Positions 1,548 through 12,352 of a stretch of 12,437 nucleotides of DNA are shown here, piece by piece. Location: UHGV virus genome UHGV-0044338; one strand, 5' to 3'. The stretch comes from a virus. A model generated the notes under the pieces. The model made no database searches and was not told the DNA's origin. It saw only the letters and a program-made list of their open reading frames with translations. The number at the start of each line of letters is the position of its first letter. The first letter of the stretch is position 1. A program made the position numbers and the translations under genes.

Positions 1548-1624
1548 TTACCCCTTAGGTAATTAAAAACCACATAAGACATGAAATCAATAGACATTAG
1601 AACATTTTATTACCCATCAGGTAA
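1548..1624 (-). promoter_or_regulatory. Sigma70-type promoter (TTGATT-17-TTTAAT on minus strand) flanked by two TTACC-N5-GGTAA operator palindromes; drives the nuclease/nin-like genes
   Basis: Perfect palindromes TTACCccttaGGTAA (1548-1562) and TTACCcatcaGGTAA (1610-1624), centres 62 bp apart. -35 is revcomp of 1585-1590 and -10 is revcomp of 1562-1567; the -10 hexamer shares its last base with the downstream operator. Confidence 0.55.
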
Positions 1625-3433: not shown

Positions 3434-3545
3434 TTTTTCCGCCCCTTTTTGTTATTGATATTGGCTATTTTGCACAATTGGAAAATTTGATCAACCAGAT
3501 TTGGTTTTTTATTACCTTTGAGGTACGAATAGATATGAAAAGAAA

Positions 3546-3620
3546 CCCCCGGGGGGGGGGGGCGGGGGGGGGGGGGGGGGNNNNNNNNNNAAAAAAAAAA
3601 AAACCCCCGGGGGGGGGGGG
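3546..3620. other. Assembly artefact / unresolved gap (poly-C, poly-G, N10, poly-A, poly-C, poly-G)
   Basis: Mirrored homopolymer blocks around ten Ns. Not a biological repeat; true sequence here is unknown. Confidence 0.9.
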
Positions 3621-3645
3621 TTCTACAGAGGGTTGTAGCTGGATA

Positions 3646-3876
3646 TCATGAGTAGAAGAAGTATGCCAGTTCTGCTTTTGAGCGCAGCCATTGTCTTGTT
3701 TTACAGGCTTTAAAAAGCCCATTCATCAATACTTTACCTGGCATTTTGCGCTTACCTGTTAAGTGAGTCTGGATATAGTGACTCGTCGTTCCGGCTTCCT
3801 GTGCGAAGGCTTCACGCTCATCCGGAGTAAGTGCAAGCCAGTGCTTTTTGAAATCGAAATGTCCGTTATCGCTCAT
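3646..3876 (-). CDS. Cro-like HTH regulator (YdaS/Cro type), first gene of the leftward operon
   Basis: 76-aa ORF with HTH-like segment EREAFAQEAGTTSHYIQTHLTGKR, divergent from the repressor gene across an operator-rich intergenic region, same strand as the replication genes. Confidence 0.7.
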   Translation of the reverse strand: MSDNGHFDFKKHWLALTPDEREAFAQEAGTTSHYIQTHLTGKRKMPGKVLMNGLFKACKTRQWLRSKAELAYFFYS

Positions 3877-3901: not shown

Positions 3902-3983
3902 ATAATAAATATTCACCCATAAGGTAACAAAAATCAAGGATAGTTACCCATGAGGTGCATTTACCTGTTGGGTAATATTGCTT
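3902..3983. promoter_or_regulatory. Divergent immunity control region with three operator-like sites and candidate divergent promoters
   Basis: Sites TcACCcataaGGTAA (3913-3927), TTACCcatgaGGTgc (3944-3958) and perfect TTACCtgttgGGTAA (3961-3975). Candidate leftward promoter TTGTTA-17-TATTAT (revcomp of 3925-3930 and 3902-3907) overlaps the first site. Candidate rightward -35 TTGCTT (3978-3983) lies 3 bp past the third site, but its -10 is poor. Confidence 0.55.
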
Positions 3984-4030: not shown

Positions 4031-4615
4031 ATGAAAAGTATCCAGGACGTCCGCAGGCAAAATCTCAACGACTTGATCGACCGTGAATTCAATGGTGTTC
4101 AGACGCGGATGGCAGAAAAACTTGGAACTCAGGCAAATCTGGTAAACCGCTGGGCTCTTGGCAAAAAGGTTATCGGCGACCAGGTTGCGCGAAAAATTGA
4201 AGCTGCCGCCAATAAACCCCGTAACTGGCTTGATATCGATCGCTCGCTTTCTCAGGAGGGGTTTCAGCCTGTCGGCCCAAGCGACATTGGTCAGCTGGCG
4301 GCTCACAACCTGGAACGCTGGATGAGCGAAAGCCGCGACCTTTCAACTCAGGGAAAACTTCACCGCGCATCCGGCGTCGCCCAGGTGACAATCAGCCGCC
4401 TGTTAAACAATGAGGTCAGCGTTTCCATTTCCACCCTGGAGAATGTTGCATCCGCATTCGGGCGTCACGGCTATGAATTACTGATTCACCCGCACGACCC
4501 TGCGACTATCAACTATGACCGCTCGCGCTACGCATTGTTACCCGAAACAGAGAAGGCAAAGATCGAAAGTTACATTGAATTTGTCATCAGCCAGAACGAA
4601 AAAAACAAACAATAA
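4031..4615 (+). CDS. Prophage repressor (CI-like) with two XRE-type HTH motifs and no S24/LexA-type peptidase domain
   Basis: 194-aa ORF. HTH-like segments QTRMAEKLGTQANLVNRWALGKK (N-terminal) and LHRASGVAQVTISRLLNNEVSVSISTLENVA (central). No G-S-M / Ser-Lys dyad C-terminal domain visible. Divergent from the cro-like gene and followed by a strong terminator. Confidence 0.7.
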   Translation: MKSIQDVRRQNLNDLIDREFNGVQTRMAEKLGTQANLVNRWALGKKVIGDQVARKIEAAANKPRNWLDIDRSLSQEGFQPVGPSDIGQLAAHNLERWMSESRDLSTQGKLHRASGVAQVTISRLLNNEVSVSISTLENVASAFGRHGYELLIHPHDPATINYDRSRYALLPETEKAKIESYIEFVISQNEKNKQ

Positions 4616-4636
4616 AATCATATTTTTCAGTAAGTA

Positions 4637-4661
4637 AGCCGCCTTCTGGCGGCTTTTTTAT
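4637..4661 (+). terminator. Rho-independent terminator downstream of the repressor gene
   Basis: AGCCGCC-ttct-GGCGGCT (7-bp stem) followed by TTTTTTATT. Confidence 0.8.
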
Positions 4662-4671
4662 TGCCTGTGCG

Positions 4672-4750
4672 ATTACCTAATGGGTAATTTTTTTAACTCA
4701 TATCTATTGACATCAAACCAAATACGCATAATTATTACCTCAACGGTAAC
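4672..4750 (+). promoter_or_regulatory. pL-like early promoter (TTGACA-17-AATTAT) flanked by two TTACC-N5-GGTAA operator palindromes
   Basis: Perfect consensus -35 TTGACA (4707-4712) with -10 candidate 4730-4735. Perfect palindromes ATTACCtaatgGGTAAT (4672-4688) and TTACCtcaacGGTAA (4735-4749), centres 62 bp apart; the -10 hexamer shares its last base with the downstream operator. Confidence 0.6.
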
Positions 4751-9159: not shown

Positions 9160-10332
9160 TTATTTATTACTGTCTTCCATCCACTTCTCAAACTTCGACG
9201 GGGAGAACGGAATCAGATCCGTATGCTCCCCGTTAATCCAGGAATCAATCATATCGGCCCACTGCTGCAACATGTAGGCGCGCTGTCTGGCGTATTCCGC
9301 TTTGTTATATACGGCGCGCACACCTTTCTGCTCATGTGCCAGAGCCTTTTCAATCCAGTCTGAAGGATAACCAGCCTCATGCAACAACGTACTGGCTGTA
9401 CGGCGCATATCGTGTACGGTGAAGTCCTGAATATGCTCACCATCTTCATTTATTATTTTCACCGTTCTGTCGATCAGAGAGTTCAGCGCGGCATTAGATA
9501 ATGGCTTCCGGAAGTTGTAACGACCAGGAACCAGATATTCACTTCCACCAGCGCACATCTGCAACCCGACCAATATATCCTGTGCCTGTTTAGGCAGGTA
9601 AATAACGTGCGCCCGGCTTCCCTTCATGCGGTCTGAAGGAATTGTCCATGTCCATTTTTTAAAATCTATTTCGTCCCACGTTGCATTGGTGAATTCGCCT
9701 TTACGAACCATAGTGATAAGCACCAGCTTTAAAGCCATTTTCATAGTACCCATAGCACCAATGGCATCCAGCGTGCGGAAGAACAGGCCAATTTCTTCTG
9801 GTGTCAGTGTTCGCTCTCGTGGTTTAAATATGGCGATAGACGAAGGTTTAATGTCAGCCGCAGGATTAAATAAACCATGACCACGGTCATTGGCGTGACG
9901 GTATACGCTGCTGATGATCTCCCTGGCCTGTACTGCTGTTGCACGGCCACCGCGTTCGACAATCCGGTCACACAAATCACGAACCATCGATGTGGTAATT
10001 TCAGCCATCATTTTGTTGCCAAGAACCGGAAGTATGTCACGGTCGATCACCGCCTGTTTCATTGCGCGGGTACTGTCAGCCAGGATGACGTGTTTCATAT
10101 AACTGTCGGTATGTACCGCAAACGTCTCGGCACCACGAATCTTTTTGATACCGTCACGTTTAGCCGCGGCCGGTGACTGGCCTGCTTTAAGCAGTTTCTT
10201 TGCAGCAATCAGTTCTTCCCGCGCTTCTGCCAGGCTGATACCGTCACGCCCATACTGCCCTATTACCAGTGTTTCGCGGCGACCGTTGATACGGTAGTCA
10301 TAGCGAAACGAGACCGTGCCTGACGTAAGCAC
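9160..10332 (-). CDS. Tyrosine recombinase / phage integrase (IntS/P4-like); frame as given starts at GTG 10332, but the conserved N-terminus extends upstream to GTG 10416 and is interrupted by TAA at 10396-10398
   Basis: 390-aa ORF with N-terminal arm-binding-like region (FRYDYRINGRRETL) and C-terminal catalytic region ending RAVYNKAEYARQRAYMLQQWADMID, collinear with E. coli IntS-type integrases as recalled. Upstream in-frame sequence encodes (M)LTDTK*KTLKPQDKLYKVSDRDGLYVAV. Confidence 0.85.
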   Translation of the reverse strand: MLTSGTVSFRYDYRINGRRETLVIGQYGRDGISLAEAREELIAAKKLLKAGQSPAAAKRDGIKKIRGAETFAVHTDSYMKHVILADSTRAMKQAVIDRDILPVLGNKMMAEITTSMVRDLCDRIVERGGRATAVQAREIISSVYRHANDRGHGLFNPAADIKPSSIAIFKPRERTLTPEEIGLFFRTLDAIGAMGTMKMALKLVLITMVRKGEFTNATWDEIDFKKWTWTIPSDRMKGSRAHVIYLPKQAQDILVGLQMCAGGSEYLVPGRYNFRKPLSNAALNSLIDRTVKIINEDGEHIQDFTVHDMRRTASTLLHEAGYPSDWIEKALAHEQKGVRAVYNKAEYARQRAYMLQQWADMIDSWINGEHTDLIPFSPSKFEKWMEDSNK

Positions 10333-10444
10333 AGCTACATACAGCCCGTCACGATCGGAGACCTTGTACAGTTTGTCCTGCGGCTTGAGGGTTTTTTATT
10401 TTGTATCGGTAAGCACAATTCACCCGTATAGAAACCATTTTCAT

Positions 10445-10480
10445 GACGGTATGAGAGTATACCTTTAAGGTAATACCGTC
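10445..10480. other. Nested inverted repeats in the int-guaA spacer; candidate attachment-site or recombinase-binding region
   Basis: GACGGTA (10445-10451) and TACCGTC (10474-10480) flank TATACCtttaaGGTAAT (10458-10474). No tRNA gene is present here. Confidence 0.25.
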
Positions 10481-10530
10481 ACCTGTACCGCCGAAAAATA
10501 TGGTGTAGAGTGAATAGAAATGAATACATA

Positions 10531-10560
10531 AAAACAAAAACCCTCTGTAAAAACAGAGGG
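10531..10560 (-). terminator. Rho-independent terminator of guaA (guaBA operon)
   Basis: Minus-strand RNA: CCCTCTG-ttttta-CAGAGGG followed by TTTTTGTTTTT, 50-80 nt after the guaA stop. Confidence 0.8.
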
Positions 10561-10608
10561 TTAAATTAGTATCTGAATAGGAATGAGTTGCTATGAGTTA
10601 GCTGTTAA

Positions 10609-12186
10609 TCATTCCCACTCAATAGTCGCTGGCGGCTTGCCGCTGATGTCATACACCACGCGGGAAATACCGTTCACTTCATTGATAATACGGTTGGAAA
10701 CGCGGCCGAGGAAGTCGTACGGCAGATGTGCCCAGTGTGCGGTCATAAAGTCGATGGTTTCGACAGCACGCAGAGAGACAACCCAGTCATACTTACGACC
10801 ATCGCCCATTACGCCAACGGAACGTACTGGCAGGAAGACGGTGAACGCCTGGCTGACTTTGTCGTACAGGTCCGCTTTACGCAGTTCTTCAATGAAGATG
10901 GCGTCAGCACGGCGCAGCAGGTCACAATACTCTTTCTTCACTTCTCCCAGAACACGAACGCCAAGGCCTGGTCCCGGGAACGGGTGACGGTACAACATGT
11001 CATACGGTAGGCCCAGCTCCAGACCAATCTTACGCACTTCGTCTTTGAACAGCTCTTTCAGCGGTTCAACCAGGCCCATCTTCATCTCTTTCGGCAGGCC
11101 ACCCACGTTGTGGTGAGATTTGATGACGTGTGCTTTACCGGTTGCAGAAGCAGCAGATTCGATAACGTCAGGGTAGATGGTGCCCTGCGCCAGCCACTTC
11201 ACGTCTTCCAGTTTCAGCGCTTCTTCATCGAATACTTCAACGAAAACGCGACCGATAATTTTACGTTTTGCTTCCGGATCGTTTTCGCCAGCCAGCGCTG
11301 ACAAGAAGCGATCTTCTGCCGGTACGTGAACAATGTTCAGACCAAAGTGATCGCCAAACATATCCAGAACCTGCTCTGCTTCGTTGAGACGCAGCAGGCC
11401 GTTGTCGACGAATACGCAAGTCAGGTTTTTACCGATAGCGCGGTGCAACAGCATTGCGGTAACGGAGGAATCCACGCCACCAGAGAGGCCGAGGATGACT
11501 TTATCGTCGCCCACTTGCTCGCGGATGCGGGCTACAGCGTCGTCGATAATTTTCGCTGGCGTCCACAGGGCTTCACACTGGCAGATATCACGCACAAAAC
11601 GCTCCAGCATGCGCATACCCTGGCGGGTGTGAGTCACTTCCGGGTGGAACTGTACGCCATAGAAGCGTTTTTCTTCGTTGGCCATGATGGCAAACGGGCA
11701 GCTTTCGGTGCTGGCTACGGTGACGAAGTCGGACGGGATAGCGGTAACTTTATCGCCGTGGCTCATCCAGACGTCCAGCAGCGGTTTACCATCTGCGGTC
11801 AGCGCATCTTCGATACCGCGAACCAGTGCGCTGTCGTTTACGACTTCAACCTGCGCGTAGCCAAATTCACGTTCGTTAGAGGCTTCAACGTGACCGCCCA
11901 ACTGCATTGCCATGGTCTGCATGCCATAGCAAACGCCGAATACCGGTACGCCTGCTTCAAAGACATACTGCGGCGCACGCGGGCTGTTTTCTTCGGTGGT
12001 GCTTTCCGGGCCGCCGGAAAGAATAATGCCGCTTGGATTGAAGTCACGAATTTGTGCTTCTGTCACATCCCACGCCCACAGTTCGCAGTAAACACCCAGC
12101 TCACGCACGCGGCGCGCAACTAGTTGAGTGTACTGAGAACCGAAGTCCAGAATGAGGATGCGATGCTTATGAATGTTTTCCGTCAT
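10609..12186 (-). CDS. guaA: GMP synthase (glutamine-hydrolysing)
   Basis: 525-aa ORF; N-terminal glutamine amidotransferase domain and ATP-pyrophosphatase motif SGGVDSS; matches E. coli GuaA as recalled along its full length. Confidence 0.97.
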
Positions 12187-12242: not shown

Positions 12243-12345
12243 NNNNNNNNNNNNNNNNNNNNNNNNNNNNNNNNNNNNNNNNNNNNNNNNAAAAAAAAAA
12301 AAAAAAAAAAAAAAAAGAAGGGGGCGGGGGGGGGGGGGGGGGGGG
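12243..12345. other. Assembly artefact / unresolved gap (N48, poly-A, poly-G) inside the guaB-guaA intergenic region
   Basis: 48 Ns followed by long A and G homopolymers; native intergenic sequence is not represented. Confidence 0.9.
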
Positions 12346-12352
12346 AAGAGAA

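Follow-up and report, generated by a model that had tools for sequence, protein, structure and literature searches.

The 194-aa protein encoded at positions 4031-4615, hereafter Rep, is most probably (at a probability of about 0.88) the lysogeny repressor of a guaA-side Uetakevirus prophage of the epsilon15/phiV10/SPC32H type, which would be induced through a LexA-controlled antirepressor (Ant) and without self-cleavage of the repressor. The window, i.e., the whole stretch of 12,437 nucleotides from virus genome UHGV-0044338 that was analysed, covers the integrase-side arm of a prophage that sits next to guaA. As judged from homology and prediction, Rep displays the features of SPC32H-type repressors that were tested, namely full-length homology, a three-part architecture, a position at the divergent switch and palindromic putative operators at early promoters. 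Its DNA binding, oligomeric state and sensitivity to Ant are carried over from a homologue with 43% identity and would apply to Rep by analogy. The Rep/Ant system itself is already known from work published between 2007 and 2016; the first-pass annotation, in which an immunity repressor devoid of an autocleavage domain was read from the DNA, is therefore a correct rediscovery, that is, an observation that was right yet already described.

With regard to the genetic context, the genes found leftwards from the integrase gene towards rep encode a lambda-type Ser/Thr phosphatase, an MT-A70 methyltransferase, PerC-like and AlpA-like proteins, RecT and a YqaJ exonuclease, followed by two small ORFs and rep itself. 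On the other strand beyond rep lie the 76-aa cro-position gene, a 70-aa gene and genes for a DnaT-domain replication initiator, a lambda-P-like protein and a DUF1064 protein. The rep gene is thus transcribed divergently from the cro-position gene, with replication genes beyond, and is flanked on its other side by the YqaJ exonuclease, RecT and integrase genes, as in a divergent early switch; the cI position that had been assigned to the protein was hence borne out. No Pfam match was obtained for the cro-position gene. By gene-order comparison, the window is arranged like the Uetakevirus phages phiV10, epsilon15 and SPC32H, and the switch region is present in 561 of 5426 complete Escherichia coli genomes (~10%). 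The APEC O1 prophage was among the best whole-window matches, with 98.1-98.5% identity over ~91% of the window.

The ORF starts with ATG and has exactly the coordinates and length given in the first-pass annotation. Over its 585 nucleotides, rep differs from its phiV10 counterpart at 12, of which 11 are third codon positions; the two proteins are essentially the same, S187N being the single amino acid change. This substitution pattern indicates purifying selection and marks rep as a real gene. A search of 5.8 billion proteins retrieved 86 relatives at E<=1e-5; all those with a named source came from Enterobacterales, and most of the 86 are ~190-200 aa long, besides a few fragments or N-terminally extended calls. 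In hundreds of E. coli genomes, the RefSeq label of the protein is 'helix-turn-helix domain-containing protein'.

Comparison with characterized proteins placed Rep in the SPC32H family. In a phmmer search against the PDB, residues 1-190 aligned with residues 2-197 of chain 5D50_A (E=4.1e-42), and the C-terminal ~100 residues aligned with 5D4Z (E=4e-20). The 5D50 entry is a Rep-Ant complex from the temperate Salmonella phage SPC32H, whose repressor has been crystallised; chain A was deposited as 'Repressor' and the other chain, of 86 aa, as 'Anti-repressor protein'. Identity amounted to 99.5% with phiV10 p40 (YP_512295), 42-43% with epsilon15 gp38 (AAO06101) and ~43% with SPC32H Rep. In the phiV10 record, p40 is annotated as a putative repressor with 'two helix-turn-helix motifs' and similarity to epsilon15p38, and in the epsilon15 record gp38 is named 'repressor' with reference to an HHpred match to 5D50. 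We found no experiments on a phiV10-type repressor in the literature. As to SPC32H Rep, the literature, PMC9986798 included, describes an N-terminal DBD, an HTH-like MDD that serves to form dimers, and a C-terminal CAD for tetramer formation and Ant binding; on the structural mechanism of repression, PMC9986798 notes that it 'has not been extensively characterized'.

The profile search proposed in the first-pass annotation recovered the two XRE-type HTH-like segments that it had recognized by eye. The Pfam HTH_3 model (PF01381, gathering threshold of 23 bits) matched the whole protein in two stretches with 38.5 bits (E=1.2e-9). When the halves were scanned separately, only residues 106-147 passed the cut-off on their own (25.8 bits), whereas residues 24-67 stayed below it (15.7 bits, E=0.015) and gave a weak YdaS/Cro-like match (E=5e-4). 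In line with two such segments, an AlphaFold2 model built from an alignment of 24 family members (mean pLDDT of 78) showed helical bundles at residues 4-59 and 86-151, a low-confidence linker at 73-84 and a long C-terminal helix at 172-193. The C-terminal tail was modelled with moderate to low confidence and without beta-strands; the CAD of SPC32H Rep reportedly contains beta-strands. Foldseek searches with this model returned 5D50 and 5D4Z as top matches, followed by generic XRE-family HTH proteins. Residues 1-85 and 86-194 showed no similarity to each other by BLASTP, and the idea that the two HTH domains stem from a recent tandem duplication was therefore rejected.

Conservation is unevenly distributed along the protein. 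Residues 1-72 are the best-conserved part (53% identity to SPC32H Rep), compared to 32% for residues 86-151 and 44% for residues 152-194. In particular, helix 3 of the N-terminal domain shares six of nine residues with SPC32H Rep, versus two of eight for helix 3 of the second domain. The motif NLVNRW in the N-terminal helix 3 was invariant in a six-sequence alignment that included the SPC32H and epsilon15 Rep proteins, and N36, R40 and W41 were invariant in the wider family. This conservation agrees with E. coli and Salmonella phages sharing one and the same operator half-site.

Such operators were sought as palindromes in the window. Five exact 15-bp copies of TTACC-N5-GGTAA were found (starting at 1548, 1610, 3961, 4673 and 4735) versus none in 200 shuffles, and 12 copies with up to two mismatches versus 3.7 +/- 1.9 expected from shuffles. 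The motif is strongly over-represented and located at three promoter regions, and its copies are putative Rep operators (Table 1). A variant with a 6-bp spacer, TTACC-N6-GGTAA, was not clearly enriched (9 versus 3.5 +/- 1.9, with 2 of 200 shuffles reaching the same count) and was rejected as an operator, the correct spacing being N5. The epsilon15 GenBank record annotates the same motif, as ATTACC-N5-GGTAAT, as repressor binding sites, and corresponding locations in phiV10, SPC32H and two E. coli prophages carry it as well. Start-to-start spacing is exactly 62 bp within the pairs 4673/4735 and 1548/1610, and such 62-bp pairs are kept in phiV10, epsilon15, SPC32H and the two E. coli prophages. 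Both pairs bracket a promoter-like site in the same way, with the distal operator upstream of the -35 by 19 nt (18 nt for the 17-bp version, ATTACC-N5-GGTAAT) and the proximal one overlapping the last base of the -10. The promoter-like site of the 1548/1610 pair was read by eye; a promoter prediction tool called nothing over 1450-1750, and the TTGATT-17-TTTAAT arrangement fails the rule of that tool for an A at position 2 of the -10. The pair with 17-bp spacing in the rep/cro intergenic region (3944 and 3961) has a matching pair in epsilon15 and SPC32H.

Table 1. Features of the 12,437-nucleotide window that are relevant to the proposed repressor circuit (positions on the window; promoters, operators and domain roles are predictions).
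Feature	Position	Strand	Basis or remark
Putative distal/proximal pair: proximal operator, TTACCCCTTAGGTAA, exact	1548-1562	.	just before DUF1064 gene start
Promoter-like TTGATT-17-TTTAAT	1590->1562	-	between the 1548 and 1610 operators
Predicted distal operator, TTACCCATCAGGTAA, exact	1610-1624	.	62 bp from proximal 1548-1562
Candidate extra operator, TTACCTTTGAGGTAC, 1 mismatch	3512-3526	.	between cro-position gene and 70-aa gene
cro-position gene, 76 aa	3646-3876	-	PHROG 35 'transcriptional repressor' E=5.6e-13; phiV10 synteny; homologue of phiV10 p41 and epsilon15 gp39
Promoter-like TTGTTA-17-TATTAT	3902-3930	-	for cro-position gene and replication operon; consensus match only
Predicted operator, TCACCCATAAGGTAA, 1 mismatch	3913-3927	.	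from -35 hexamer into spacer of leftward cro-side promoter
Operator-like site, TTACCCATGAGGTGC, 2 mismatches	3944-3958	.	rep/cro intergenic region
Predicted operator, TTACCTGTTGGGTAA, exact	3961-3975	.	rep/cro intergenic region
rep, prophage immunity repressor, 194 aa	4031-4615	+	SPC32H Rep / epsilon15 gp38 / phiV10 p40 family; homology, fold, substitution pattern
N-terminal HTH DNA-binding domain, residues 1-72 (putative reading head)	4031-4246	+	weak HTH_3 / YdaS-Cro-like; 5D50_A E=1.7e-18 from the domain alone
Second HTH_3-fold domain, residues 86-151, putative counterpart of SPC32H Rep MDD	4286-4483	+	HTH_3 25.8 bits at 106-147; 5D4Z (Rep 92-198) E=4e-20; role from PMC9986798
C-terminal tail, residues 152-194, putative counterpart of SPC32H Rep CAD	4484-4612	+	aligns with C-terminus of 5D50_A / 5D4Z; role from PMC9986798, PMC9638917
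Intrinsic terminator after rep	4636-4663	+	predicted; annotated at equivalent place in phiV10
Predicted distal operator, TTACCTAATGGGTAA, exact	4673-4687	.	19 nt upstream of -35 of early recombination-side promoter
Promoter-like TTGACA-17-AATTAT, 10/12	4707-4735	+	for operon 4769 -> exo/recT
Predicted proximal operator, TTACCTCAACGGTAA, exact	4735-4749	.	overlaps last base of -10; 62 bp from distal
Integrase	9160-10332	-	next to guaA
guaA	10609-12186	-	prophage inserted beside it

The first-pass annotation had also supposed that induction might depend on a LexA-controlled antirepressor, encoded outside the window and possibly to its left. Within the window, neither a LexA box of the form CTGT-N8-ACAG nor an antirepressor-like protein was found. 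In SPC32H, ant is an 86-aa gene flanked by the structural genes on one side and the tailspike gene on the other, and an ant gene of 85-86 aa adjoins the tailspike gene in all five relatives examined (APEC O1, MCJCHV-1, phiV10, epsilon15 and SPC32H), MCJCHV-1 being a second E. coli prophage with the same repressor and switch region. The 85-aa Ant of MCJCHV-1 is 88% identical to SPC32H Ant, and that of APEC O1, also of 85 aa, matches PDB 5D50_E with E=1.4e-46. In each of the five, an SOS box lies 21-22 nt before the ATG of ant and agrees with the consensus at 17-18 of 20 positions, as exemplified by TACTGTATAAATATACAGTT in the E. coli prophages (18/20). Furthermore, a predicted Rep operator is located 76-77 nt upstream of the ant ATG, exact in four of the genomes and with one mismatch in phiV10. 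In phiV10, the Bro-N protein p23, for which the record gives a partial antirepressor domain, was considered as Ant and rejected, since the true Ant homologue is its 85-aa neighbour p24. In APEC O1 (L005), ant occupies 9857-10114 and rep 37509-38093, which places ant ~27.4 kb to the left of rep; by this measure, ant in the UHGV-0044338 prophage would sit past the window's left end by ~23 kb. The supposed antirepressor is present in every relative examined, and its presence in this prophage is probable by extension.

Taken together with the literature on SPC32H, these data suggest the following working of the switch. As proposed from the SPC32H work and from conservation, the N-terminal HTH domain (residues ~1-72) would read TTACC half-sites, the second HTH-fold domain (~86-151) would form the dimer, and the C-terminal tail (~152-194) would serve both tetramer formation and docking of the antirepressor. 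A single tetramer, having two head pairs, would fill the two operators that lie 62 bp apart around a promoter; this spacing, about six helical turns, fits such an arrangement. In the rep/cro region, a tetramer would fill the three-site cluster, and occupancy of the operators would shut off the early operons. Upon DNA damage, cleavage of LexA would derepress the small SOS-box ant gene, and an Ant tetramer, by engaging the C-terminal domains of Rep, would split the Rep tetramer into dimers that come off the DNA, so that inactivation of Rep would be reversible and would proceed without proteolysis. These steps have their counterparts in SPC32H. PMC9638917 and PMC9986798 describe Rep bound to palindromic sites as a tetramer, in which each head pair is drawn from different dimers. 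According to PMC9638917, one Rep tetramer is enough for repression, the Ant tetramer contacts two Rep dimers, and Ant breaks up the Rep tetramer without competing for the DNA-binding surface. The path from the SOS response through LexA cleavage and Ant synthesis to induction is credited to Kim & Ryu 2013 in PMC7380047.

One suggestion of the first-pass annotation was not supported, namely that two DNA-reading heads per monomer could explain the recognition of paired half-sites. Under this proposal both HTH domains would contact DNA, and a monomer or dimer would meet the paired half-sites with two different heads. It draws on the second domain being the better HTH_3 match of the two (25.8 versus 15.7 bits) and on the conservation across the family of Q118, T120 and R123 at its helix-3 position. 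However, the operators are symmetric palindromes with a single type of half-site, TTACC, and not composite sites, and symmetric 15-bp palindromes fit identical heads contributed by different subunits. Moreover, the E. coli and Salmonella lineages have the same operator motif, and between them helix 3 of the N-terminal domain has been kept and that of the second domain has not. The middle domain of SPC32H Rep is a dimerisation module, with DNA binding given to the N-terminal domain in PMC9986798 and PMC9638917, so the second HTH is not expected to be a second reading head. We infer that a Rep tetramer accounts for the paired sites, and we regard two different heads per monomer as improbable.

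Two further alternatives concern the nature of the protein as a whole, and both fare worse. The cI position is the sole point in favour of a repressor of the lambda-cI/LexA type that would undergo RecA-stimulated self-cleavage through a cryptic protease. Against this, Rep has no autoprotease module: neither an S24 peptidase nor another autoprotease was matched at E<=1 in Pfam and NCBIfam, no peptidase appeared among the PDB sequence matches or the Foldseek fold matches, and no protease domain is on record in the 86 relatives. The protein also contains neither an Ala-Gly nor a Cys-Gly dipeptide and is devoid of cysteine; neither of the two features tested for the lambda cI/LexA class, the S24 Ser-Lys domain and the scissile bond, is found in it. 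The three domains of SPC32H Rep account for all 194 residues, and self-cleavage is effectively refuted, in agreement with the missing Ser-Lys module noted in the first-pass annotation. That Rep could instead be an antitoxin of the HigA/VapI type or some generic XRE regulator, rather than an immunity repressor, might be read from weak NCBIfam matches to HigA and HipB (E ~1e-3 to 0.1) and from a BP9 phage record that labels the protein 'antidote protein VapI'. Those matches are far below the cut-offs, though (18.7 bits versus 47.7 for HigA and 12.7 versus 79 for HipB), and no toxin gene adjoins rep, its neighbours being the cro-position gene and small phage ORFs. The location of rep at a divergent phage switch, with palindromic predicted operators over early promoters, and the deposition of the SPC32H homologue as a repressor in complex with its antirepressor likewise speak against this assignment, which we consider very unlikely indeed.

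The closest characterized counterpart is the Rep/Ant pair of SPC32H (Kim & Ryu 2013 J Virol; Kim et al. 2016 PNAS; 5D4Z, 5D50), which resembles the present case in full-length homology of the repressor, three-part layout and genome position, in TTACC-N5-GGTAA operators with 62-bp pairs, and in an ant gene whose product is 88% identical to that of a sibling prophage and whose SOS box is equally far from the ATG. It differs in that the host lineage here is E. coli, in the middle domain of Rep, which is only 32% identical, and in that the window shows no ant gene. The Gifsy-1, Gifsy-3 and Fels-2 repressors (Lemire et al. 2011) and the CI/Tum pair of coliphage 186 share the logic of an uncleavable repressor that is inactivated through binding by an SOS-controlled antirepressor, as outlined in PMC7380047. 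Unlike antirepressors that cover the DNA-binding surface, SPC32H Ant dismantles the tetramer. Lambda cI, P22 c2 and LexA have in common with Rep the genomic position, the immunity role, the HTH head and multiple operators at divergent promoters, but they carry an S24 domain and a cleavage site, in place of which Rep has the second HTH-fold domain and a short tetramerisation tail. A more distant likeness is offered by the Rco/Rap system of plasmid pLS20, where Rco combines an N-terminal HTH DBD with a C-terminal p53-like 'TetDloop' tetramerisation element and has a partner antirepressor (PMC9986798). Rco lacks a middle dimerisation domain, unlike SPC32H-type Rep, and the kinship between them was proposed from structure.

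The finding has little weight beyond annotation, where the protein deserves the label of an SPC32H-type Rep under the control of an antirepressor, and not that of a generic HTH protein. It also calls for caution, as two domains of HTH fold in a repressor do not equal two DNA-reading heads, and here the better scorer with HTH_3 is probably the dimerisation module. Extraintestinal and avian pathogenic E. coli commonly carry prophages of the epsilon15/phiV10/SPC32H type. Induction through LexA and Ant, as established in 2013-2016, is reversible and open to cross-talk, which gives it practical relevance.

Two more tentative ideas arise from the arrangement of the operators, and we consider them rather doubtful. 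The clusters flanking rep (3913-3975 and 4673-4749), whose best-matching 25-nt copies are 712 bp apart, may be bridged by Rep tetramers or higher oligomers, with the resulting loop enclosing and autoregulating rep; or the E. coli and Salmonella lineages may be cross-immune and cross-inducible across genera, since the operator half-site has been kept and Ant is 88% identical despite 43% identity in Rep. No description of rep looping or of cross-genus immunity for an SPC32H-type Rep was found in the accessible literature. As a separate observation, the integrase gene of the window carries a premature stop at codon 7, and this prophage copy may therefore fail to excise even when derepressed.

A third promoter module predicted to be controlled by Rep, the 194-aa immunity repressor, was found in the window, where TTGATT-17-TTTAAT is bracketed by two exact operators lying 62 bp apart. 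This arrangement is alike in build to that of the module around the early recombination-side promoter (4673-4749), including a common TCTATTGA before and into the -35 element, and it is kept in phiV10, epsilon15 and the Salmonella phage SPC32H. With regard to the operator-like site close to the attachment site, this could be a chance occurrence or a Rep site affecting int expression. The gene in the cro position, labelled 'hypothetical' in phiV10, epsilon15, SPC32H and RefSeq, had no Pfam match, and PHROG 35 was its sole match.

Features of the window and of related prophages
Feature	Location	Strand	Remarks
Third Rep-controlled promoter module (predicted)	window 1548-1624		between lambda-P-like and DUF1064 genes
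76-aa gene, cro position	window 3646-3876	-	PHROG 35 'transcriptional repressor', E=5.6e-13
Operator-like site ATACCTTTAAGGTAA	window 10459-10473		1 mismatch; between integrase gene and guaA
Extra Bro-N genes and ANT-domain genes ('phage antirepressor Ant')	phiV10 (L001) 19646-20230		
As above	MCJCHV-1 (L004) 36828-39988		
As above	APEC O1 prophage (L005) 10430-12164		

In a comparison of the Salmonella lineage with that of E. coli, identity was 88% for Ant, the small LexA-controlled antirepressor (SPC32H, L003 19676-19936 vs L004 40306-40563), and only 43% for Rep (six-sequence alignment A2). Because Ant is so alike and the operator half-site TTACC is common to both lineages, cross-induction and cross-immunity between the genera may be possible, as far as sequence comparison suggests, even though Rep itself has diverged. 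In the E. coli relatives, the extra Bro-N and ANT-domain genes, which SPC32H lacks, are located between the structural genes and ant/tailspike, with several Rep operators among them, and may represent additional or alternative antirepressors. As for the adjoining receptor genes, the APEC O1 prophage, a close relative, carries a K1 capsule-specific endosialidase tailspike (L005 6542-9661), phiV10 an O157-type tail fibre together with an O-acetyltransferase, and MCJCHV-1 a different fibre again, unlike either. The receptor module is swapped among these three and the Rep/Ant switch is retained.

The N-terminus of the window integrase (10333-10420, minus strand) reads VLTDTK*KTLKPQ where that of APEC O1 reads VLTDTKLKNLKPQ..., and this comparison places an in-frame stop at codon 7; the listed ORF therefore restarts at a GTG and encodes 390 aa instead of 418. 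Either the stop is a sequencing error or the integrase has been inactivated; if the latter, excision of the prophage may no longer be possible. At 3546-3622 and 12243-12346, stretches of repeated G, N, A and C/G break up sequence that is otherwise normal (for example, a G-run, 10 N, A13 and C5 followed by a G-run). Relative to APEC O1, each is an insertion and nothing else, 58 nt long at 3554-3611 and 98 nt long at 12243-12340; the flanking sequence is complete on both sides. Both have the appearance of artefacts of assembly or masking rather than of biology, and spurious terminator calls arise from these stretches as well.
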